Shown: piece after piece, positions 3,133 to 17,913 of the stretch
How the letters are laid out: each line of letters begins with the position of its first letter
Position numbering within the stretch: the stretch's first letter is position 1
Assembly (NCBI RefSeq): GCF_018350175.1
Contig: NC_058380.1
Coordinates: forward strand, 86,180,001 to 86,244,000
Direction: 5' to 3'
Length of the DNA: 64,000 nt
Source: Felis catus
Lineage: Eukaryota
The notes under the pieces: generated by a model
Database searches by the model: none
Seen by the model: the letters and a program-made list of their open reading frames with translations, nothing else
What the model was told of the DNA's origin: nothing
Program-made: the position numbers and the translations under genes

Positions 3133-4710
3133 TTAGGGGGGCAGGAATTCACTGAGGTCAGGGCCTAAGGAGGGCCGCTGGCTTCGTTCCCGGATGTGGT
3201 CCAGGAGCATGTCGGTGGCTCGCTCCAGCAACAGAGGCAGCAGTTCCTGCTCCGCGGCGGAGAAAGAGCCCAGCACATGGGCCTGCACTGTATCAGGGTG
3301 GGCGGGGCGCCCGATGCCTATCCGCAGCCTCGGCATTGCCTGTGGGGGAGCCAGAGGGGGACCCAGGGAGTTTCGATGCCCCGTGCGGGAGGCCCCCATG
3401 TTGGCCCACCACACCCAGGGCAGGGGCAAAGGGGCAGACTCACATGGGAGTTGAGACAGCTAATGCAGGAACGGACTCCGTTGTGGCCCCTTCAAGGGAT
3501 ATGGGAGGGACAATTAGTGCTTCCCTGGGTCAGCACCCTTCACCCCTCCCAGCCCAGGCTGGTGTCAGAGCACCCCTCTTCCCTGCCGAGACTGGGATCG
3601 GCACTCCTCCCCCCACTCCAACTGGGAGGCTGTCCTCCCTAGCCCACCTTGACCTGCTCAGGGCCTCACCTGGCGCTTCCCCCCAGCTTCACAGCCACTT
3701 TCCCCAGGGGCTTGTCCAGCTCATCATGCACCAGGTAGACCTCCTCAGCAGTCAGCCCAAACAGCTCCGCTTGGCACAGGGAAATGGTGGCCCTGGTTAC
3801 TGCCCATCTGCCCAGAGGGCGTTGTCCCGACTCACGGCTCTCGTGAGGAGGGGCCGCAATTGACCCCATTTCGCATATAAAGAAACTGAGATTCCCTTAA
3901 GTACCCGAGGCCAGAGGCAGCAATTGCAGCTCAACAGGCACCTGGAGGTGAAGAGATCTACCGCCGCCCCAGAATCCCTTCTCTGGCCCCTACGCCCTCC
4001 CGGCCGGCCCATCTCTGGTGCCCTTGACTCACCGGCCCGGGCCACGCTGCGCCCGCTGGCGTTCATGAGCCGCCGGGGCCGAAGCAGGACCAGCTGGGCA
4101 TCCTCGAGCGAGGCCACGGCGAGGTCGGCCGCGCAGCGCCGGTCGCGCGCCCAGGTGTCCGCCACACCCAGACGCCGCGCCAGGTGCCCCAGCACCGCCA
4201 AGCCCACGCTGTGCCGCGTGCCGGGCAGTCCAGGGTTCCCCAGACCGGCCACCTGCGGGCGGCACCGGGGAAACTGAGGTGCGACATCTCTCGCCGCCCT
4301 CTGGCTTACAGCGCCCCCTGGGACCCAAACCGGAGAAAGGGAAACGGAAGGCAGGGTAGAGTGAGGAAGGGGGGCCAGAAACCCCGGAGACGCCAGAAGG
4401 CTGAGTGCCCCGGGAGCTGAGTGGGCAGAGCGCCTGGAGCAGGAGCAGAGTTCCTGGAAGCTTACAGCCCGTCAGAATACTGGCCCCATTTTCCAGAGAA
4501 GATAACCGAGACAAGGAATTTGGGGGATGGTGTCTGGAGACAATGGCAGAACAGGAGCTAGCTAGGGCCCAGGAGCCCCTACGCCGCCGCGCCCCCGCCC
4601 CCGACGCCACTCACCAGCCACCGCTTCCCCGCGGGCCGGGGTTCCAGTGTGAGCACGCTCATGGCGCGACTCAACCACAGCGTAGTTCGCCGGCAGCAGT
4701 CTGGCCGCAT
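3133..4710 (-). CDS. PTRH1: Peptidyl-tRNA hydrolase 1 homolog
   Basis: complement join(4615..4710,4033..4252,3670..3769,3444..3489,3133..3339). Pth-family motifs [22 protein letters not shown] and RLRIGIGRP are intact. N-terminus is [18 protein letters not shown]. Confidence 0.95.
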
Positions 4711-4734
4711 GTCGCCCCCTTTCACGGTGTAGGC

Positions 4735-5210
4735 CCCGCGCCCTGACGTCAGTCAGGCCTCGACCAATCGCAGTGGCCATCCGTCCCCAGCGTCCAATCC
4801 CCGGGCGGGCCACGGGCCGCCATGCTCCTAAGGAGCGGAAGTAGCGGGGCGGCGGCTGAGCCCGAGCCTCCACTCATTCCGCGGCGCCGCGTCACAGTGT
4901 TCCTGTGGGGTTTCTTGTGGACTTGCGGAACCCTTGCGTGACCTCCGGATTGGGAGGAGGGAGGCTTGCTCTGGCCCCTGCTGTGGCCCTGCCTGGCTGC
5001 GGAAACCTGACAAGTCCTCTCCCTGATGTACCTCAGCCTGCCCCGCCCATAAGTTTGCTAACCTCTTCCGGGCTCTAACAACCCAGGGACCCCGGAGGCG
5101 TGGCCAGGGGGGCGGAGCCTGTGGGCGTCCTGGAGATGGTGCCTAGCAACGTCAGGGGTGGGCCTCGGGAGGTCCTCCCGGAAGGGAATTCAAAACAAAC
5201 TCCAGAGAGG
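4735..5210. promoter_or_regulatory. Bidirectional CpG promoter of PTRH1 and TTC16
   Basis: Head-to-head genes about 500 bp apart. Full CRE TGACGTCA 4744-4751, CCAAT 4764-4768 and 4794-4798, ETS CGGAAGT 4836-4842, GC boxes, RFX-like GGTGCCTAGCAAC 5138-5150. TTC16 exon-1 donor GAG|GTGCGT at 5209/5210. Confidence 0.75.
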
Positions 5211-5984
5211 TGCGTGAGAGGGTCGGGAGGGAAGAGACCGAGGCTGAGTTCTCAGGAAGGGTTTTAAGCACAGGAGAGGAGAGGCAGGATCGGTTGTGCC
5301 ATTCATTAAAGTCCCTGGCCGCTGCATAGAGAACTGAGGGCTTGGGACCTGTGTCCGGTGGGGAGTTCGGAGAGGTGGTCGGAGCTGGTGACCGGACAGA
5401 GATGGCATCGACCCAGACGAGAGGATGAGAGAAGAGAAGGGATCTAAGAGATCTTAAGGAAGTGAGGCAGACAGGACCCGAGGTGGACTCCCCGAGGTGG
5501 GAAAGCCTGGGGCAGGAAGTGCTCAATTTGGCCTGCTGGGCATGAGAGTCCCACAGGATAACCAGAGGGGCTGCAGGACCTCCTGGGCCTGCAGCTTGGG
5601 GCGGGGCCTCAGCTGGACACATTAAAGTGTTGGGTGTCAGGAGATGGATCTGGAACTGAGGGGAACCAGGAGGAGAGCAGAGGGCAGTGTGTGTACGAGA
5701 ACCCTGGCCCTTGACTTTGACCATAGGAGAGGGAGAGAAGCAGGACTGGAGAGAAATTGGAACATCCCTAAGGGGAAGGGGGCTAGGAGCGCCACCAGGA
5801 CCCAAACTGTTCTGGAGGCCTCCTACCAGCCTCATTTCCAGCCCTCGTCCATCCTGTAAAACACCTGAGGAGAGTGTGTCAGTGGAGCAGAGGTCATCTC
5901 TGAGGCCTCCCCCCAACTTGCTGTCCCTTGGTTCTAGGATGCTCTGGAACTTGACCCGGCTCCCTCACAGCACGTCTCAAAGCC

Positions 5985-8900
5985 ATGGGTGAATCCAGTC
6001 CCAAAGGGACCCTACAGCGCATCTTTGGGACCAGCCAGGTGTTCCAGAACATTGATGATGTAAAGCCAAAGGCCACGGGATTAACAGTGCCCCTCAAAGT
6101 CAGGGAGTAGTGAGTGACTATCTTATCCCAGGGTCCCAGGTTCCTACTCTGCACAGCCAGTGACATGCCCTACAGCTTTGGGTTGGTTACTCTCCCTCTC
6201 TGGGCTTCGGTGAACTCAACTGTATAACAGGGCTCTCCCACATCAGCAGATGAAGATGGTGGCCTGGATGAGCTCCAAGAAGGCCAGCCTCCTCTCCCTG
6301 GGTGTCTGTCTACCTGCCCAACCCTGTCTCTCCACCCAAGCCTCCCTCCTCCCAACCCACCTGCAGCTGCAGCTGTATGCCCTGGGCTGGCCAAAGTCAG
6401 GGCCAGCCCCTCTGCTTCCTGCCCCCCCCCCCCCACAGCTATCACCAAGGCCAGCAGTGCTTGGAGAGAGAGGACTGGGAGATGGCCGTGCTGTACTTTT
6501 CCCGCGCCCTCCACCTGAACTCCCAGCTGGTGAGCAGTGGGCATGGGCGGTTGCTGATACACACTTTGCCCTCACCGTTGAACCTGCCAGGCCCCTTCTC
6601 TCGGTCCCTTCTGGTAACTGAGCATCAGGCCTCAGCGGACGGTGGGGAGGGGACACAGCCTGGGTCCTCTCTCCCTCAGGTAGACTTCTATGCTTTACGC
6701 GCCGAGGCCTACATCCAGCTCTGTGACTTCTCCTCGGCCACCCTGAACCTGCGAAGGGCCTACTCCTTCCAGCCGGAGAACACCAAATACCTGGAGCGGC
6801 TTACCTTCGTCCTTTACCTGCAGGTGCCTGGGGCTGCCGCAGGCCCACCCAGGGCGCCCGCCTCACACCCAAGCCTGTTGGCTCTCCCTTCAGCTGTGGG
6901 GGTTTTCGTTGCTCCAGGGACCAGCTCCGCCTCTCTAGGGACCTTCTTGTCCCATCTGTACCTGCTGCCCCTCTCGTGGCCTCTCCCACCTCCAGAGCTG
7001 GGTAAAGTGTTTGGCAACATCGCCCAATGAGAGCTTTCTGCAATGATTACAGACAGTGGTCTCATTACAATGATTACCTGGGACTGATGAGCCTTTGAGA
7101 TACAGTGTGACCGGGGAACTAATTTTTTGGTTTTACTTAATTCATTAATTTAAATTTGTACAGCCACACGAAGCTGGTGGCTACTGTACTGGGCCACACA
7201 AACCTAGCGTCTAGGGAGGCTCAAGCACTAAAAAGCTAAGAGGATTCCCCATTCACAGTTCAAGACAAAAGTATTAAGTCATAAAATACCAACAAAGTCC
7301 AAGACTTGCTGTTTCTCTCTGTTCCTGTTTCTGTATTGCTGTCCCTCTCTTTTGTAATGTTTATTTATTTTTGAGAGAGAGAGAGAGAGAGCATGAACAA
7401 GGAAGGGGCAGAGAGAGGGGGGAGACAGAGAATCCCAAGCAGGCTCTGCATGGTCAGGGCAGAGCCTGATGCAGGACTTGAACTCACAAACCATGAGATC
7501 ATGACCAGAGCCAAAGTCGGACCCTTAACCAACTGACGCTGAGCCACCCAGGTGCCCCTGTATTGTGTTTTTGTCAACTGTATAATTCTCTTGCTGTGTC
7601 TCCCTAGCCCTGTATCTCTTTCCATCTCTGTCCCTGTCTCTCCATCTCTGTGTCTCTGTCCCCTGAATTTTCTCCTAGATCTGAAGGGCTGTGTCCCTGT
7701 CTCTTGTCTCTCTTCCCTCCTGCCCCAGTGGTGCCCCCTGCAACTGATAGGTGCTGCTGGGTTTCAAGCAGGAGTGACTCTCCGCTGTGTCCCCAGGGCC
7801 AGTGCCTGCTCGAGCAGTGTGCCTTCCTGGATGCCCTGAAAATCTTCTCTCAAGCCTCTGCACTCCAGCCCGAGAAAGCCAGCTTCCGTTACCGATGGTG
7901 AGTGCCCGGCATGTGTCCTTGTTCTCCTGGCAGCCCCTTCCTGCCCCTCTCGCCCGGCGGACAGAGTGCCTCTGCCCCCTACCCTCAGCATGGCCTGTCT
8001 CCTGGCCCTCAAACGGCACCAAGACTGCCTCTCGCTCGTCACCAAGGAGGTGCAGCTTGGCACGACCAATGCCGACGTCTACATCCTCCGGGCCAGGCTC
8101 TACAACTTCTTCCAGAAGGTAGAGCAGGGAGGGCAGGGCGAGGGTGGCCCTCCCCCTGCCTGGGTGCCTCCAGCATACCCTGTGATTACAGGAGGCCGCT
8201 AAGCTGTCCATGTGGCGGCGACACTGTCCTCTCCGGGCAGAGTCCCCAGCCGTCACTGACCACTCAGCATAGTTGTCCTGTTGTCACTCAGCTCTGGCTC
8301 TGTGCCAGGCCTGTGTCGGCCCTCAGAAACCCCAGGGTGAGAAACCTGTGCCATCCCTGCCTTTATGGAACTCACAGCCCAGGGGAGATGTCCTTAAGCA
8401 GATAATTGCACAAAGAATGATTTCACGAGTGTGGGGGCACCCAAGGATCCATTAGATAAGGCAGCCCTTCCTCCTCCCTTCCTTTGTCTTATTTTTTTTT
8501 AATGCTTATTTATTTATTTTGAGAGGGAGAGAGAGCATGAGCAGGGGAAGGCAGAATCCCAAGCAGGCTCCGCCTAGGTGCAGAGCCTGACGTAGGGCTC
8601 GAACTCACATAATATGAGATCGTGACCTGAGCTAAAACCAAGAGTCGGATGCTTAACCAACTGAGCCACCCAGGCACCCCCTTTCTCTCCTTATTTGCCT
8701 CAGTGAACATTTTAGGAGCCCTGCGCTGGGCATGGGGCCAGACAGTATAGGGAACAGCTTGGGGGCAAGGGAGACTTGGGGTCACAAGAGAGGAGGGGAC
8801 TGCAGGTATGAGAGGGCATCAGGCAGGGTCTTGTGAACTGAAGAGGACCCTGACTTCTTCCTGGGGAAGCAGAAGCCTCAAAGGGGAGCTCCCTGGGGCA

Positions 8901-11900
8901 GTGGGTTTTCAAAAGATCCTTTTGGCTCCCAGGTGGAGTTTGGGCTGGAGGGGCAGGTCAGGAGGCCGGGAGCCTGGGTGCCGTCCAGTTGGAGAGGAAG
9001 GTAGAAGGGAGGGTGGCCATGGGGGTGGCAGGAAAGGGGCAAGTCCCACAGTCCTTTGGAAGTCAGGAACAGAGACGGACGTGAGAGGGCTTGAGGGAAA
9101 GGGAAGGATCCAGAACAATGCCTGGTGTTCCTGCTTGGCCTGGTGCATGGGAGTGGGGGAACTCGGGGGGACGAAGGAAGGGCTGGGTGGGTTCACCTCA
9201 GTCACCAGGTGGTGCATCCTGGGGGTAGCCGGAAACCTGAGCCTCTCCGTGCTGGGGTCTGGGCTTCTGGGCCCCACAGTGACTCAGCGAGAGAGTCTCC
9301 TCCCGAGGCAGGAGACTCATAATTATTGTAATTATCAGTAATTGCTGACTGTGGGAGTTCAGCCCCTCCTGCCACCTCCACCTCTGTCATATGTACACAC
9401 CTTCAAAGCACTTGACCCATGCTCGTCTTTAAGACTCGAGGTAACCCCCTTTAGATACAACCCATTGTCCTCTTTTCACAGATGAGGAGCTGGGTCCAGA
9501 GGGCCTGTCCAAGGTCACACAGCCAGCTCTCATTGGTGCTGCCTTTGAACCCAAGCCCACCTGCTCCAAAGCCCTGTCCCTTGCCTCTGCCATCTTCCTC
9601 CTCCTGACTTCCGCTCGCACCTGGTGTCCACACTGTTTGCTGTGCTCACCCTCCAACCAATTACCCTACAGGCCACATAATGCTTGCTAAAACTGTTTGT
9701 TGACTCACTGACAGATTTGCTTACCCAGTGGAAGGTATTTGCCTGGGGATGTTTTCTGTTTGTGCCCAGGTCTGTATCTGTTCCTTGCCAGAGCAGTCTT
9801 GGGCTTAAAGGTCAGGGGAGTTGGGGAAGGCATGTGCGTGGGAGGATAGGGAGGAAATGACAGTCACGGTCAGGAGGACACACCCTCCACCCACCTCGAG
9901 TGGCTTTGAAGAAGTTCTCCAAGGAGGAGGCATCTGCAGCCCCATTCTATGGCAGAAACCACTCAGGCTGACCTGGCTCACCTGAGGTCACATCTGGAGA
10001 GGGACCAGCAGGGATGGGGCCTGGGATGGGATTTTCCCATAATGCTCCCTGCTTCCTTCATGAGGCAAAAAACAAAAGGCGGAATAGCAATGCAGGGGCA
10101 CTGAGGATGGGGGACACGGTGCCTGCCTGCCCAGAGAAAGGCCCCTATAGGCCCGGAGGTGTGCTTTCACCACGGGACAGGTCGGAGCTCAGCTGAGCCT
10201 GCGGCCCTGATGTCATCCTTGGCCCCCTGCAGCCCAGCCTCTGCTATCGAGACCTGCACAGAGCCTTGCTGTTGGACCCCAAGCACCCACAGGCCAAGGT
10301 GCTGCTCAAGATGATGGTGGACCAAGCCCAGCAGGCTCGCCAAGATGCCGGGATCCTAGCCGTGCAGGGCAAGCTTCACTACGCTCTGCAGCGCATCAAC
10401 TGTGCCATCGAGAACAACCCTCTGGATCCAGGCCTCTTTCTCTTCCGGTACTGTGTGGGGAGGTGCCCATCTTGGATCGTGCTGTGTGGACTCAGGAGAG
10501 GCCTTGATCCTCCCCAGGCTTCAGTTTCCCCATGTAGTCTCTAATAATCTTTCCCTACAACCCATTAGGGTCAAAGCTGGGGAGAAGGTTGTAGCTGCTC
10601 TCGCCCTTAGAGGAGGGGCAGGCAGCCGCCTCAGTTAACCTGGGAATTCTGGCCCCCCAGGCCTGCTGAGCATCCATGCTGGCAGGCTCAGCCCAGCTCA
10701 GTGGACAGGCTTGAGTTTGAATCTTCCCCCCGCCCAGGACTCAGTACACGATTTGGAGCCATTTAAGTTCCTTGAACCTAGGTTTGTGCATATAAACAGT
10801 GGGGTAAAACATCCGCCCCACATACAAAAAGGCCTTTTGTGTAGAGGTTGGCGTGCACCTGCTTCCCAAAAACAAAGGTGGAACAAACAAAGGTTTGAGT
10901 AAAACGAAACTACCAGTGACCAGCAGGTTATCCAAGTGGTAACCCAGAGCCCGCCCCACATCTAAGCTAGAGGCCGAGGAGGGGGGCCCTCACGCCACCT
11001 CCCCCGGTCAAGATGGTCCAGAGTGGCCAACAGTCTGGCTGGCCACCCCGGTTGGTGGGGGTGCCTTGGTCCTCATGCCCCTCCCCCGCAGGGGCATCAT
11101 GTACCGCCGCCTCTGGGAGTTTGACGCGGCTGTGGAGGACATCCTGAAGGCGCTGGACATGATGAGCGAGCACCAGGAGGACATCGCGCAGCAGGCGCAG
11201 CGGCAGCTGCTGCTGGCCTACAACGACTTCGCGGTGCACTGCTACATGCAGGGTGCCTACCAGGAGGGGGTGCTGCTGCTCAACAAAGCCCTCAGGGACG
11301 AGCAGCAGGAGAAAGGCCTGTACATCAACCGTGGGGGTGAGCGCCGGCTGCCCCTGCCCCTCGAAGTCTGGGCTGGCACTTGAGGCCCCCGAAGGAGGGA
11401 GGATGGGAGGAGGGAGAGAGCCTCAGTGCCCTGGGGACACACTTTGGGAAGTGCTGCCTTAGACAAGGGCTACAGTCTGTTCAAACTGCTGAGAATCAGG
11501 CTACTGGTAAAAGGTGCCCCGAGGCAAGGCAAACCTCGGCAGGCACCCTCCACCACCGGCAGGTGCCCTCCACCGCCCACGGGAGTTCGTAGCCACCAAT
11601 CTCAGAATCCCCTGGGGGTGGGGAAGCGGGGCTGGGGCTCCTGGGCACTGGGCTTGAGGACCCACTCAGCCCCCTGTCCCTGGGTCCCTGGGCCCCAGAT
11701 TGTTTCTTTCAGCTGGGCAACCTGACCTTTGCGGAGGCGGACTACCAGCAGGCGCTGGCACTGAGCCCACAGGACGAGGGTGCCAACATCCGCATGGGCC
11801 TGCTGCAGGAGAAGATGGGCTTCTGCGAGCATAGGAGCAGGTGCGTGACTTGTGGGCGGGACCCCGTGGCGCTGGGGGGCGGGGCATGGCTCGAGGCCGC

Positions 11901-14900
11901 CTGCCGGGACCCTGGGTCGAGATCCTCTGCTCTCCCAGGCAAGTTTTTGTGAAAAATTAGTCACTTTTTCCGGAATATTGTTATGGTAATTGCACTTTTT
12001 ATAAAATATCTCCAGTGTTCCGTGTGGGGCTTAAACTCAGGAACTGTGAGATCACCATCTGATCACCATCAGAGCCCTAACGGACTGAGCCACCCAGGCG
12101 CCCCTCCTATGTATATATTAACAATTAGTACCATTTTACAAAATGAAATAACGTTAAACTATCTTTTGACTTCCGATCTTATTATATATGCGACTATATC
12201 ATTCTTCTTTATTATTTGCATGGTATTCCATTTTATGGAAGTACCACAATTCATTTCTTTAGACAACTTTCTACTGATGAATATTTGGGCTGTTTTCTGG
12301 GATTTTTTTGTTGTTTGTTTGTTTGTTTGTTTGTTTTATACATAACATAATGAGCACCCAAGATATACATTTTCATGCATTATACTAGGAATGCCACAGT
12401 TAGATTGCTGGAAGCCAAATTGTGTTAAAGGGTGTGAACATTTAACATTTAAAAAAAAATTTTTTTTTCCAACGTTTATTTATTTTTCGGACAGAGAGAG
12501 ACAGAGCATGAACGGGGGAGGGTCAGAGAGAGAGGGAGACACAGAATCAGAAACAGGCTCCAGGCTCTGAGCCATCAGCCCAGAGCCCGACACGGGGCTC
12601 GAACTCCCGGACCGCGAGATCGTGACCTGGTTGAAGTCGGAAGCTTAACCGACTGCGCCACCCAGGCGCCCCTGAACATTTAACATTTTAAAACAATATC
12701 TTGGGACGCCTGGGTGGGTCAAGTCAGTTGAGTGTCCAACTCTTGATTTCAGCTCAGGTCTTGATCTCAACGGTTTGTGAGATTGAGCCCCACCTCCTTG
12801 GCTTCATGCTGATAGTGCAGAGGCTACTTGGGATTCTCTCTCCCTCTCTGTGCCCCTCCCCACTAGCACTGCCTCTCCCTTTCAAAAGAAATAAACTTAA
12901 AAAAAAAAAGAAAGAAAGAAAGAAAGAAAACCATAATATCCAATTGCTCTCCACAAATAGTAAGCTGCTGCAGACTTCCCCCAGGAAAGGAGTCTTGGTT
13001 TTCCCAATCTCCCTAGTGCCAGGTGTTAAGACTGTTTTCTTTTCTTTTCTTTCTTTTTTTTTTTTTAAAGACTATTTTCAACTCTGAGAATGCAGTAGGC
13101 AAAGAAACACTCTTGAGTTCATTTATGTTGCAAGTTTAAATGGCTAGTGCACTGCAGCACCTTTTGTGCGTGTTCATCATTATGGCTGGTCCCAACCAGA
13201 TTTTTTTTTTTTTTAAATGATAAATTGCTCTTTAAAACTTTTTGTTGTTGTTACAGAGTTCTTTGTAGGCTGGGAAAATTATTGTCTGCCTCTGTGGGAA
13301 AATATATTTCTCCTATTTATTAGCTTTCCTTTGTGGTGGTTTTGCTACTCGGTAATTTGGGATTAAATCGTAGTCAAATTAATTTTCTCCTTTTTAGCTC
13401 TTGGGTTTGTGACATTCTCAGAAGGGTCTTCCTTACCCGTAGATATTAAAAACATTCACTTAGAGGGGTGCCGGGGTGGCTCAGTCAGTTAAGTGTCTGA
13501 TTTGATTTTGGCTCAGGTCTTTTTTTTTTTTTCTTTTAATGTTATTTATCTTTGAGTGAGAGAGAGAGAGACACAGAGAGAGACAGAGAGAGACAGAGAC
13601 GGAGCATGAGCAGGGGAGGGGCAAAGAGAGAGGGAGACACAGAATCTGAAGCAGGCTCCAGGCTCTGAGCTGTCAGCACAGAACCCAGCGTGGGGCTCGA
13701 ACTCGTGAACCGCGAGATCATGACCTGAGCTAAAGTCGGATGCCCAACCAGCTGAGCCACCCAGGCGCCCCTGGGCTCAGTTCTTGATCTTACGGTTCTC
13801 GAGATGGAGCCCCACGTCAGGATCTGTGCTGACAGGCTGATAGCAAGGAGTCTGCTTGGGATTCTCTGTCTCTCTGCCCCTCCCCTCCCCCCACTTTCTC
13901 CCCCTCCCTCTCTCTCAAAATAAATAAGCTTTATTTAAAAAAAAAAAACATTCACTTATATTGGGGTCTTATACTAGCATTTAAGTGTTGGGGCCATTAA
14001 GAGTGTTACTGTTAGAAGAGCAGAGGGGCATGGTGGAGTTGGGGGAGCAGAGACCAGCCTGATTTTCCCCAGACTCCCCAATGGGGCCCAGCAATTGCTA
14101 TTTCCCTCCAGAGGGCCCAGCTCACAGCAGCCTGTGACCCACTGTGTCCTGCAGGCAGTTCCATAAGGCAGAGAGCCACTTCTCAGTGGCCATCCAGCAC
14201 AACCCCCGGAAGGCCCAGTACTACCTGCACCGTGCCAGGAGCCGGCAGCTCCTGCAGAACATTCTGGGGGCCCGCCTGGATGTTGCCACCGTCCTGCTCC
14301 TCAACCCCAAACAACCTAAGGTGGGTTCCTGCTGGGCCAGGAGGGCGGGCTCCAGAATCAATACCCACTGTTGCTTAAAGATACCCCTGTTCCCAGCAGT
14401 CTGGTTTCCTAGAAAATCTAACAGCGGCCAATGCCAAGCACTTACAGTGTGCCAGGTCCTGTTCTAGCCACTTCAACTTGCATTGCCATTTCCCCTCTTC
14501 AGCACCCCATGAGACAGGTAGCATTATTATCACCCCCAATTTGCAGGTGAAGAGGGTAGGGTTGGTTCAGAGAGGTCAGTTCCCTTGCCCCAGGGCACAC
14601 ACTTAGAGGCCAACCCCCCACAGGCTGGCTCCAGCACCTGCAGTTGGCTGGCCAGGTCAGGGTCAGTGTGCTCTCTTCCGGTAGGCCTCCTCACAGGCTC
14701 CTCCCAGTTCTGGAGCAAGAAGGTCTGGCCCTCTAAAAACCGCAGTTTGTAAACGCTTCCCACGTCAGCTCTGAGAAGGGCTCTGCAAGGGCAGGGCAGC
14801 GCCACACCCTTCGCCCCCTGCCCTGGCCCACACCCGGCTCTTTCCTGGCAGCTGCTCCCACTGATGGCCAACCTCTTCCCGGGCATGTCGGTGGAGGAGG

Positions 14901-17900
14901 TGCTCGGCAGCCAGGCGGCCCACCTGGCCAGGTTGCAGCTGGATCGGGTGTCGGAGAGCAGCCCGCAGGCTGGCATCCCTCAAGGCATCATGGGGCAAGT
15001 TCCTCAAGTGGGGACCTCGGGCCAGGAGCGGGAAATGGCCGGGGGTCAAGACTCCTCCTACCCCACTGCCTCCTCAGGCCCTTCTCCAGCCCCCGGGGCT
15101 GGTGGGCTGAGTCTGGCGGGGGGGGGGGGGGGGGGGGGGGGGGGCTTACCCAGCGCTCTGGGGCCATGGCTTGGCAGGCAGCTCAGGGAGCGGGAGCGAG
15201 AGCGCCACAAGGCACGGGCCCTGCAGCTCAGGTGGAAGCAGGAACAGCCTTTGGCCGAGACCTCTGAAGAGCTCAAGGCCACCACCCCCCAGACCCTGGA
15301 GGGAAAGCCAGAAGGTCCAAAAGAAGAAGCTGAGACCCCCCAAAAGGAGGAAAAACAGGCGAGTGTACCACATGCTGGGGCCTAGGGCCTGGAGGTCTGG
15401 GGGGAGCATACCCTAAGCCAGGGCTGAGGGATGCAGATTGGCTGGAGGCTGGCATCCGGGTCTGGCTCTGCCGCCACTCAGCTGTGTGACTCGGGCTGGG
15501 GACATTCTGCTCTGAGATGGGGATGGTACCAGTAAGGGGTACACCCCTGAGGAAGGGCACACGAGGATGTGGGCCCCTCACAAGGAGGCCTTCCCACACT
15601 TGGCCACGCTCACCTTCATAAATTCCGTGTGTGTTGGCTGTGCCAGGATTTTCTTAATTCTGCAATCCAGTTCAAAAAACTTTTTTATTGAATGTAATGT
15701 AAATATAGAAAAGTACACAAATCCTAAGGGAGCGAGCTGATGACTTTTCACAAACTGAATACACCCACGACACCATTATCTTTTGAAAGACCACATTCCC
15801 AGGCCCCCTGCAGGTCCCTCCCCTAGCCCAGTGCACCCCCAAGGCTGTCCTGACTGCTGACGTCACAAATGAACGTGTCTGTTCACGCCCGTGGACGGAT
15901 ACAGTGTGCCCGCTTGTCTGACTCCTTTCACTAAGCTTGTTGGTGAGATGCATCTAAGCTGACCGCTCATTCCCATCGCTGTAGAGAATTCCATCCTGTG
16001 GAAGCCCCACGATTTGTCCGCTCCGCTGCTGATGCGAGTACACTTGTGTTCAGAGGAAACGTTACGAATGAGTAAACGGACCACGAGCATCCCTTGCCAT
16101 AAACGGCAACAGCCAGCGCTAGTTTTTTAGCTCACGCCGCAACACACAAATGCAGAACTTTGATTTGTGTGCCCTCTGAAGTCATCGTGAGCTCCCTCCC
16201 TCGGGGCGAGGTAGAGCTAGCGCCTGCCCGTCCTCACTTCCATTCCCCTCAGCCTGCAGGCGTGAGTGGGTCGGAGGGGTCCAGCAGCCACACGCCTGGC
16301 TGTGGCGTCCTGCAGGCCCGGATTCAAGCCCCGCCTCTCTGCTTTCTTAGCTGCGTGTCCCGGGCAGGCTGCTGCGGCACCCGTAGCCTGGGTTTCTAGA
16401 CCATGAGAGGGTAGTTCCCTCCCAGATATGTGGGAGGATGAAATGGGAGAGGCATGTAAAGTGTAAAAACAGTCCTCCATTCTTCACTAGCTGTTCCCCA
16501 GGGCACAGCACTTCACCATTTACAGAAGCCTGTCCCACACTTGAACTCATTTGCCTTTTGAAACTGAGGCCCAAGCAGCTGCCCAAACACTCCCTTTCTC
16601 AGAGTGCCATGCCAGTCTGGTCTGCCCACTCCCCTTCCTGGCCAGTCTTAGCCTGTCCGTGTCCCACCCAGCCCCAACTGGGGACCCTTGCGGAACTCTA
16701 AGCTGCTGGTCTTCCTTCCAGAGCTGTGCCACTGGCCCACGGCCTCCCACAGCCGGTGACTGCCTTGCCTGTCTCCGCCCTAGGAGGAGAAGCCGAAGGC
16801 CGCAGCCAGCAAGGTGAGGTCCCTGTCCAACAGCTACCTCAGCCAGACCTCTTCAGGCTGCATCTTGGGCTGTAAGTCCCCAGCGCTCCTGCCGGCCCTG
16901 AGTACACCAAAGCGGCAGAGTGGGCCAAGGTCAGGGGTCAGAGACCCTCTGGCCCGTAGATGCTTCTGGGCTCTGCTTCTTACAGCTGTGTGACTCTAAA
17001 GCAGGAGTGAGGATGCTCGCTCTGCCAGGGGTGTGGTGAACCCTCAGGGAGGGCTGCACGAGGGGGGTCCTCACCGTCTCCCGCATATCCTACAGCCCTG
17101 GCCCGCCTGCAGGGCTTGGGTTGCCGAGGAGGGCTGGGCTGGTGTCGTCTGGCAGACCTTCCCCTTGGCCACGCAAGGCCTGTGGGGCAAAGGCAAGGGT
17201 GAGACGGACACCTCCTTTTCCTGGAGCTGTCTGCGAAGGGCAGCCTGACAGGTACCCTTGGCACATCCTTCCCAGTCAGGACCCTGTCCACCTCAGAGAC
17301 AGAGATGTCCACTACCTGCCAGGAATACAAGAGCACCTCGGGCACTGCTGTGACATCCTCAATCTCCTCACTGCTGAAGACTCAATCCTCAGACCTGTTG
17401 GAGAACGGGGAAGACCTAAAATTGAGCCACAGGCCCAGAGAAAACGAGGCCGCCCGGGGCCAGAGCCGGAGGCCCAGCCAGACCGCGGCCGCCCAAGGTC
17501 AGAGCCGGAGGCCCAGCGAGATGAAGGCCGCCCAGGGCCAGGGCCAGAGGCCCAGCAAGACGGAGGCTGCCCAGGGCCAGAGCGGTAGTTCCAGCGAGAC
17601 AGAGGCCACCCAATGCGCACGACGAAAGCCTAACAAAACCAAGGCCGCTAGGGGCCCAAGGCAGAGGTTCAGAAAGACCAAGGTTGCCCATGGCCATAGC
17701 TGGGGACCCAGTAAGGCTGCCACCCAGGGCCAGTGCTGGGGACTGATCCGAAGTCCCAGCAAGACCAAGGATTTCTATGATCCAAGTTGGAGCCCCAGCA
17801 GCACTGAGGCCACTCAGGGCCAATGCCAGAAGCCCAGCAAGACTGATGCTGCCCAGAGTTTGAGCCAGAGCACGAGCCCAGGTTCCAGCAAGACTGAAGT

Positions 17901-17913
17901 AACCAGGGCCTGA
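5985..17913 (+). CDS. TTC16: Tetratricopeptide repeat protein 16 (start codon uncertain; see findings)
   Basis: join(5985..6109,6439..6529,6680..6823,7797..7897,7989..8118,10233..10447,11092..11336,11699..11840,14155..14320,14852..14994,15178..15358,16784..16871,17276..17913). The exon-2 acceptor is at 5937/5938 and exon 1 ends at 5209. TPR peptides (VDFYALRAEAYIQLCDFSSA, YNDFAVHCY, GLYINRGDCFFQLG) and a Ser/Lys/Gln-rich repeat tail are present. Phases are consistent if the two GC donors are used. Confidence 0.9.
7350..7558 (-). mobile_element. Can-SINE (tRNA-derived carnivore SINE)
   Basis: Reverse complement of GGGGCACCTGGGTGGCTCAG head, (CT)n region and AAAATAAATAAA tail. Confidence 0.9.
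8491..8680 (-). mobile_element. Can-SINE
   Basis: On the + strand: T-rich tail, GAGAGAG, then ...GAGCCACCCAGGCACCCC head. Confidence 0.9.
12012..12104 (-). mobile_element. Short or truncated Can-SINE
   Basis: Ends in GACTGAGCCACCCAGGCGCCCC; only the tRNA-derived head is present. Confidence 0.7.
12451..12672 (-). mobile_element. Young feliform-type Can-SINE (SINEC_Fc-like) with a 16-bp target-site duplication
   Basis: CpG-rich, full-length copy. TSD TGAACATTTAACATTT at 12435-12450 and 12673-12688. Confidence 0.92.
12703..12930 (+). mobile_element. Can-SINE
   Basis: GGGACGCCTGGGTGGGTCAAGTCAGTTGAG head, CT-rich body, poly(A)/(AAAG)n tail. Confidence 0.88.
13464..13948 (+). mobile_element. Can-SINE interrupted by a nested antisense SINE
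   Basis: Head at 13464-13520 resumes at about 13772. Outer TSD AAAAACATTCACTTA at 13448-13462 and 13944-13958. Confidence 0.88.
13520..13771 (-). mobile_element. Nested feliform-type Can-SINE
   Basis: Complete antisense copy flanked by the degenerate duplication TTGGCTCAGGTCTT / TGGGCTCAGTTCTT derived from the host SINE. Confidence 0.88.
15118..15144 (+). repeat. G27 homopolymer in TTC16 intron 11
   Basis: 27 consecutive G. Confidence 0.9.
17441..17905 (+). repeat. Degenerate 39-bp (13-aa) coding tandem repeat in the last TTC16 exon
   Basis: Successive units include NEAARGQSRRPSQ, TAAAQGQSRRPSE, MKAAQGQGQRPSK and TEAAQGQSGSSSE, decaying towards the 3' end. Confidence 0.85.

Follow-up and report, generated by a model that had tools for sequence, protein, structure and literature searches.

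Loss of the ancestral start codon and a one-base deletion at the 5' end of TTC16 in the domestic cat, with probable use of an older ATG as the new start

Terminal lesions occur in conserved genes, and genes with at least 90% of their reading frame intact have been treated as conserved (Hecker et al. 2019, PMC6386725, in the portions available to us). TTC16 of the domestic cat is like these genes in that an N-terminal frameshift leaves 96% of the frame intact. It is also like the compensatory frameshift pairs described in the accessible sections of Biba et al. (2022, PMC8935012), since eight codons are re-framed in a less constrained part of the gene. A further likeness is to UCP1 of the elephant seal (PMC11050727), another carnivore gene with a one-base deletion near the start for which a downstream ATG was proposed as a rescue; according to the available part of that paper, the rescue failed on testing, the wild-type construct giving no detectable protein or activity. 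Felid COA1 (PMC8709867), as far as the available passages go, likewise carries changes that disrupt the gene, and alternative splicing has been proposed as a way round them.

Literature listings, which covered 30 of 49 TTC16 papers, and the openings of abstracts yielded no study of where TTC16 starts or of the gene in felids. The gene is unmentioned in the three main texts checked, so far as these were available (among PMC8935012, PMC11050727, PMC4914097, PMC8709867, PMC6386725 and bioRxiv 10.1101/2024.04.26.591110), and supplementary lists (the PMC6386725 datasets and the tables of the cheetah preprint) may name it. Here we describe TTC16 in a stretch of 64,000 nucleotides of domestic cat DNA, referred to as the window. 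We consider it probable that AAA at the old start and a one-base deletion framing the ATG at 5985 have together led to an 802-residue product in which the first 30 residues are swapped for eight and the TPR core is likely functional.

The 5' end of TTC16 in the window

TTC16 sits on the + strand of the window. Its exons 3-14, joined from the window, splice to an 802-codon open reading frame with zero internal stops, all acceptors being AG and all donors GT apart from two GC, which bears out an earlier statement that the downstream exons are intact. Similarity over the TPR core, the presence of TPR repeats and a single copy in a conserved neighbourhood were each found. The window matches the Felis catus X1 model without substitution across residues 76-590, its core is about 81% identical to human, Pfam TPR_1, TPR_2 and TPR_11 pass the cut-off in the leopard cat protein, and the seal ortholog is modelled as all-helical. 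Exon 2 and exon 7 each have one match in the genome, which indicates a single copy. The adjoining open reading frames resemble what we take to be CFAP157, PTRH1, TOR2A and SH2D3C, and TTC16 is presumably expressed in testis and ciliated cells. A metagenome scan with exon 4 left one locus from 594 pattern matches, at 56% identity; it was not a mammal-like relative and was set aside. The features of the region are as follows.

5136..5138, + strand: upstream ATG in strong context, 56 nt ahead of the old start, off-frame with respect to the old and new frames
5138..5150, + strand: RFX X-box-like element with 1 mismatch to the consensus, overlapping ATG 5136 and shortly downstream of a GC box at 5110
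5192..5194, + strand: AAA replacing the ancestral ATG, two adjacent base changes; Met in hyena, meerkat, fox and bear
5195..5209, + strand: last codons of exon 1, reading TNSRE as a fossil, followed by the donor GT at 5210
5938..6109, + strand: exon 2, of which 5938-5984 would now be 5' leader, with the old N-terminus still legible in the dead frame
5939..5992, + strand: overlapping upstream ORF of 17 codons, out of frame, with its stop just beyond ATG 5985
5985..5987, + strand: putative new start, an ATG in frame where the Pro and Trp codons formerly met, GCC ATG G, with G at -3 and +4
5985..6008, + strand: eight re-framed codons MGESSPKG, identical in 8/8 felid species having such a model
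6006..6009, + strand: site of the one-base (purine) deletion, placed by two-frame decoding of outgroup proteins
6060..6061, + strand: internal GT donor in exon 2, whose use removes 50 nt, bypasses the stop at 6061 and brings the ancestral frame into register with exon 3's main frame
6439..17913, + strand: exons 3-14, TPR solenoid and low-complexity tail, intact, with an in-frame fallback ATG at 6482

The initial annotation had read exon 1 as ending without an ATG and as now non-coding, and both points hold: the exon terminates AAA ACA AAC TCC AGA GAG (5192-5209) before the GT donor at 5210. Models of hyena, spotted hyena, meerkat and fox read E-F-M where the window has AAA, and the human N-terminus given in the initial annotation agrees, small differences aside, with human protein P0145. 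Among felids, the loss of the start codon at 5192 is documented for the window only. With T in position -3 and A in position +4, the ancestral start was probably weak in context by the Kozak rule.

In exon 2, the frame from 5938 reads DALELDPAPSQHVSKPWVNPVPKG, with a stop at 6061. This is the old frame, carrying DALELD...KPWVNPVPKG, and its now dead peptide is identical at 22-25 of 30 residues to five carnivore proteins. The frame of 5985 reads MGESSPKGTLQRIF..., and is closed upstream by TGA 5952. Its first ATG is that at 5985, where G in positions -3 and +4 agrees with the optimal Kozak context ascribed to it. The PKG of MGESSPKG is the same reading in the old and new frames. To locate the missing base we decoded outgroup codons by solving two reading frames jointly, which left a single solution for 21 of 22 codons; for mustelids, the main frame was taken from mink and the alternative frame from stoat, two different species. 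The decoded codons are CCA TGG at the Pro-Trp pair, followed by CCA AAG GGA GCC (mustelid) or CCA AAG GGG ACG (anteater). In the window the corresponding codons are CCA AAG GGA CCC, so that one purine is missing at 6006-6009, and the sequence is not, as had been proposed, one C short at 5998-6005.

We found that alternative-frame isoform models of stoat (P0126) and tamandua (P0169) begin at the ATG equivalent to 5985, which indicates that this ATG is older than cats. Pro-Trp is retained in 56 of 74 non-felid mammal models, two of which were decoded to CCA TGG. By these comparisons ATG 5985 is an old latent codon brought into frame rather than one newly made. Two elements of a start turnover are found here: the ancestral start is lost in the window, and the new ATG is in frame, heads an intact open reading frame and is older than the frame change. 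Translation likely starts at ATG 5985, the putative start of the 802-residue protein. The frames and the intact open reading frame support an in-frame start at 5985, and the N-terminus is likely a net 22 residues shorter, as first suggested. N-myristoylation of MGESSP is unlikely by the consensus, given Glu after Gly.

Distribution among felids and the segment lost

The felid sample comprised 29 listed models from 12 species, with the largest cluster represented by 15 of its 38 members. The shifted TTC16 start is already annotated in database models across the cat family: the MGESSPKG start occurs in 11 of the 29 listed models and in 8 of the 12 species, covering both subfamilies (domestic cat, leopard cat, Geoffroy's cat, Canada lynx, jaguarundi, lion, leopard and jaguar). 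The other 18 start elsewhere, 13 at an intron-2 ATG and five further downstream; the cat X1 model itself starts inside intron 2. Neither DALELD nor KPWVN of the old N-terminus appears in any of the 29. Models of lion, cheetah and bobcat are flagged as low quality, with the correction site not visible. Exon 2 is unshifted in hyena, spotted hyena and meerkat. Given the felid-wide shifted start and the unshifted hyenas and meerkat, we infer that the deletion reached fixation on the felid stem, once that lineage had separated from hyenas and mongooses but before Panthera and Felinae diverged.

Runs of purines often give rise to erroneous one-base indels, which speaks for an assembly error or a variant private to one animal. 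We regard this as scarcely credible here. The identical shifted start recurs in eight felid species of both subfamilies, and all 167 sampled words of 4850-6560 are present in 14 of 24 listed sequencing runs, from 7 studies, although the sampled words are compatible with a second allele; 11 of these 14 runs are flagged as a possible source and 3 are not. For the deletion, an assembly error is refuted by the eight species and the runs from seven studies.

The AlphaFold model of grey seal TTC16, built on a 79-row alignment (mean pLDDT 85.5), gives pLDDT below 50 to the ancestral-type residues 1-26, a weak helix at 29-36 and TPR helices from 56. The lost segment of about 30 residues is thus predicted to be mostly disordered. 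Among 51 distant or divergent representatives 50 align, 3 of them from residue 22 or earlier and 13 from residues 23-40, and an IFG-S-like motif directly past the lesion, which the new start would keep, occurs in 11 of the 51. The lost KPWV-P-P has a mean top-residue share of 0.80 in mammals versus 0.88 in the first TPRs and is altered in several bats and a vole. Given its good conservation among mammals overall, losing it may come at a small functional cost.

Selection on felid TTC16

We applied constraint tests to proteins, using 36 rows on a fixed tree, with residues 9-500 as the core. Residues 1-74 of four intron-2-start models, the alternative-frame tails of jaguar and jaguarundi, and the tail repeats 651-689 and 791-802 were masked before counting. 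The ratio of core to tail rates is 0.32 in crown felids (about 27:44 changes) and 0.40 on the felid stem, compared with 0.41 in hyena plus meerkat and 0.12-0.62 in other carnivore groups. Equal rates in core and tail are rejected for crown felids (p 2e-6) and for the felid stem (p 8e-4). The crown felid ratio lies above that of the pooled caniform crowns (canid, ursid and mustelid) without differing from it significantly (p 0.14); it does differ once pinnipeds, whose tail alignment is poor, are included (p 0.019), and p is 0.08 when the comparison takes in every non-felid carnivore group. In intron 2, used as a control, there are 2 changes in 55 codons among 7 felids, a rate equal to that of the core; given so slow a control, the tail may overstate the neutral rate.

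We also asked where the changes fall. Columns conserved in 49 non-carnivore mammals account for 3 of 23 variable felid core columns, against a neutral expectation of about 55%, CpG-weighted or not; this avoidance differs from neutral at p about 5e-6. On the felid stem they account for 2 of 19. The corresponding counts elsewhere are 6/40 in mustelids, 5/29 in pinnipeds, 7/41 in hyena plus meerkat, 1/8 in ursids and 5/10 in canids. Cat breaks 6 of 273 conserved columns and other carnivores break 4-10. Pfam TPR scores of the leopard cat fall below those of hyena, and a reading of lower felid scores as erosion is not borne out, the conserved-column breaks being within the carnivore range. About 4.4 nonsense changes would be expected in a neutral core and none is present in the models (p 0.013), which were pre-selected as open.

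Across 8 felids, exon-2 codons 2-41 have changed once, against 5.3 or 1.5 expected, a weak result (p 0.03 or 0.57, depending on the yardstick). In exons 3 and 5 the alternative-frame models yielded three synonymous changes and one at a first position, too few for dN/dS, and in exon 14 first-position changes are about as many as third-position ones.

What would mark a unitary pseudogene is absent: no lesions of the ORF body occur in the window, and the protein-level tests go against neutrality. Our data suggest that, on balance, purifying selection on felid TTC16 likely continues, with mild relaxation possible, and that pseudogenisation of the cat gene is unlikely. The initial annotation had preferred a gene that is not decaying over early pseudogenisation, and the core/tail ratios of 0.32-0.40, the avoidance of conserved columns and the intact open reading frame side with it; relaxed selection across the whole gene, which it had named as contrary evidence, is not seen at the protein level in either the core/tail ratio or the conserved columns.

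Start choice and comparison with known systems

ATG 5939 falls inside exon 2, with A at -3 across the splice junction and C at +4, and its ORF overlaps 5985. ATG 5136, if transcribed, heads a 42-codon ORF. The two are in one frame of the spliced leader and both stop at 5990-5992, past ATG 5985, in agreement with the overlap described initially. Two off-frame upstream ATGs in adequate or strong context, overlapping the start at 5985, count against its use. The equivalent of ATG 5136 is in frame in models of hyena, meerkat, fox, dog and camel. We also weighed, and rejected, a third lesion in felids, one within exon 1 that would have pushed ATG 5136 off frame. The register in cat agrees with that of canids to one side, and to the other with that of hyena, meerkat and camel; on peptides alone, this suggests insertions in those lineages. 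The out-of-frame state of ATG 5136 in cat is therefore probably ancestral and the indels elsewhere lineage-specific. Since ATG 5136 overlaps the X-box-like motif, its region may be promoter rather than leader, and the X-box-like element likely explains the conservation of the surrounding stretch; the pattern has 1 match in 4300-6200 and 25 in the 64-kb window, and is weak alone. Both upstream ATGs look like old by-products, 5939 of a D-A codon junction and 5136 of the X-box-like element.

The internal donor at 6060 reproduces the cat models X3 and X4, and a meerkat model uses the same position. The 50 nt it removes and the one-base deletion sum to 51, leaving the old frame open into exon 3. 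ATG 6482 in exon 3 is in frame with strong context, and ATG 6055 is in frame via donor 6060. Given donor 6060 and ATG 6482, neither lesion alone needed to be null. The initial annotation had described two mutually compensating lesions; AAA at 5192 and the deletion in exon 2 are both real, and "mutually compensating" overstates their relation. The order of the two is not readable from the sequence, and either could have come first.

With the old ATG weak in context, leakage of scanning ribosomes to the strong ATG 5985 is plausible and might already have been under way before the deletion. The deletion in exon 2 would then have made this leaked initiation the main product, and donor 6060 would still have allowed an in-frame product from the old ATG, which, by then mostly a decoy, could be lost. 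The ORF from ATG 5939, overlapping 5985, would lower output, and might in principle tune translation as the initial annotation had proposed. A bolder version is that one deletion turned an age-old decoy ATG into the start of TTC16 in the ancestor of all living cats, with the conserved donor as a bridge by which the old frame stayed productive for as long as the old ATG lasted, and that the leftover overlapping upstream ORF sets a cat-specific lower or regulated level of a probable cilia or sperm protein. We hold this to be unlikely as a whole; if true, it would exemplify a "frameshift plus start swap" class that compensatory-frameshift screens filter out.

TTC16 might instead be functional and mainly started downstream, at ATG 6482, at ATG 6055 via the internal donor or at ATG 6250 in intron 2, with 5985 merely the first in-frame ATG that annotators chose. 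Most listed felid models begin elsewhere, ATG 6482 has strong context, ATG 6055 is in frame with donor 6060, and the overlapping upstream ORFs would suppress 5985. We nevertheless think this unlikely: starting at 6482 would truncate the first TPR helix, the near absence of changes in exon-2 codons 2-41 speaks weakly against it, and the intron-2 models of different cats read exon 3 in differing frames, so that they resemble annotated retained-intron transcripts. Initiation in the old frame at CTG 5944, a non-AUG codon with G in both the -3 and the +4 position, rejoining the main frame via donor 6060 or by a -1 slip at C CCA AAG, would fit the frame being open into exon 3 with that donor and the resemblance of the dead-frame peptide to carnivore proteins. 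That resemblance is equally the expected remnant of a late-stem lesion, the donor route deletes the deeply conserved RIFG motif, and the C CCA AAG heptamer is present in unshifted outgroups too, which makes this reading very improbable.

A fixed hypomorph or an early pseudogene, yielding little protein under partly relaxed selection, would fit the two overlapping upstream ATGs, the slightly raised core/tail ratio of crown felids, the low intron control, the three low-quality felid models and the leopard cat TPR scores. Felid changes nevertheless avoid conserved columns as those of other carnivores do, and the core lacks the nonsense changes expected under neutrality, so we judge this quite improbable, less so than the non-AUG start and more so than a downstream one. 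The preferred reading, in which ATG 5985 opens a shortened and still constrained protein, would make the shifted start a felid synapomorphy. TTC16 would offer a dated, clade-wide case of surviving start loss plus frameshift, in which outgroups still display the latent ATG as well as the splice bypass. The 18 listed felid models that start elsewhere, and cat X1 in intron 2, are a caution for annotators. The impact is modest: TTC16 is without established function in the literature found, the lost piece is predicted to be disordered, and N-terminal start shifts are known and tolerated.

The comparison with the systems introduced above sharpens on the differences. Unlike the terminal-lesion genes of PMC6386725, as described in the parts available, cat TTC16 has a nameable replacement start that derives from an old out-of-frame ATG, and the event can be dated to the felid stem. 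Unlike the compensatory frameshift pairs in the accessible text of PMC8935012, it has one indel, and a switch of start codon brings the frame back; it does not fit a pCFM, there being one coding indel and ATG 5136, at 56 nt, fitting neither frame. In contrast to elephant seal UCP1, as far as that paper was available, the downstream ATG has strong context and the coding sequence is apparently still constrained. COA1 is a different gene, lost in cheetah, and start capture by frameshift is absent from the passages of PMC8709867 at hand. The nearest parallel is in TTC16 itself: Canis (models P0199 and P0203) lost the same ancestral ATG, reading E-F-V. Unlike cat, Canis lacks the exon-2 frameshift and has an in-frame ATG 19 codons upstream, and by these comparisons its loss is independent of that in cat. 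Cat TTC16 is probably a felid-wide start-site turnover of a known, tolerated kind, with a traceable mechanism.

Possible repeated turnover of the TTC16 start and N-terminus

In dogs, wolves and jackals (Canis models P0199 and P0203), we found that the ancestral TTC16 start is occupied by Val, with an in-frame Met upstream. Both elephant seal models (Mirounga P0015 and P0030) begin with an unrelated N-terminus. These protein models suggest that the start of TTC16 may have turned over several times within Carnivora. Distant TTC16 relatives (P0248, P0255, P0263, P0266 and others) share an F-x-T-A-V-S-E-E motif upstream of RxFGSS, which occupies the place of the mammalian KPWV-P-P motif. An earlier, single replacement of the N-terminal segment thus seems to have taken place.

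Annotated starts in the upstream CpG island and in intron 2

4500-4900, between TTC16 (+ strand) and a - strand gene: CpG island, CpG observed/expected 0.8-1.0
6250-6438, TTC16 intron 2 (+ strand): ATG with open frame, the first coding exon in many database TTC16 models

The CpG island is likely a promoter common to TTC16 and its - strand neighbor, which we take to be PTRH1, and several non-felid TTC16 models start at an ATG like that at 4822 inside it. The intron-2 first coding exon is probably an annotation artefact. Since the poly-C tract at approximately 6424-6436 of this intron varies between cats, models with the intron-2 start enter exon 3 in differing frames.

Downstream introns, exon 14 repeats and a metagenome match

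15115-15146, TTC16 intron after exon 11 (+ strand): long G run

The donor sites that follow exon 11 and exon 12 of TTC16, in two successive introns, are GC (14994-14996 and 15358-15360). The copy number of GQS-RRPS-like repeat units in exon 14 (17450-17620) differs between mammals, and the cheetah model contains 13 additional residues there. A metagenome contig (L002, 2501-2644) carries a TTC16-like exon with 56% identity and equal exon length (48 codons), matched with exon 4.
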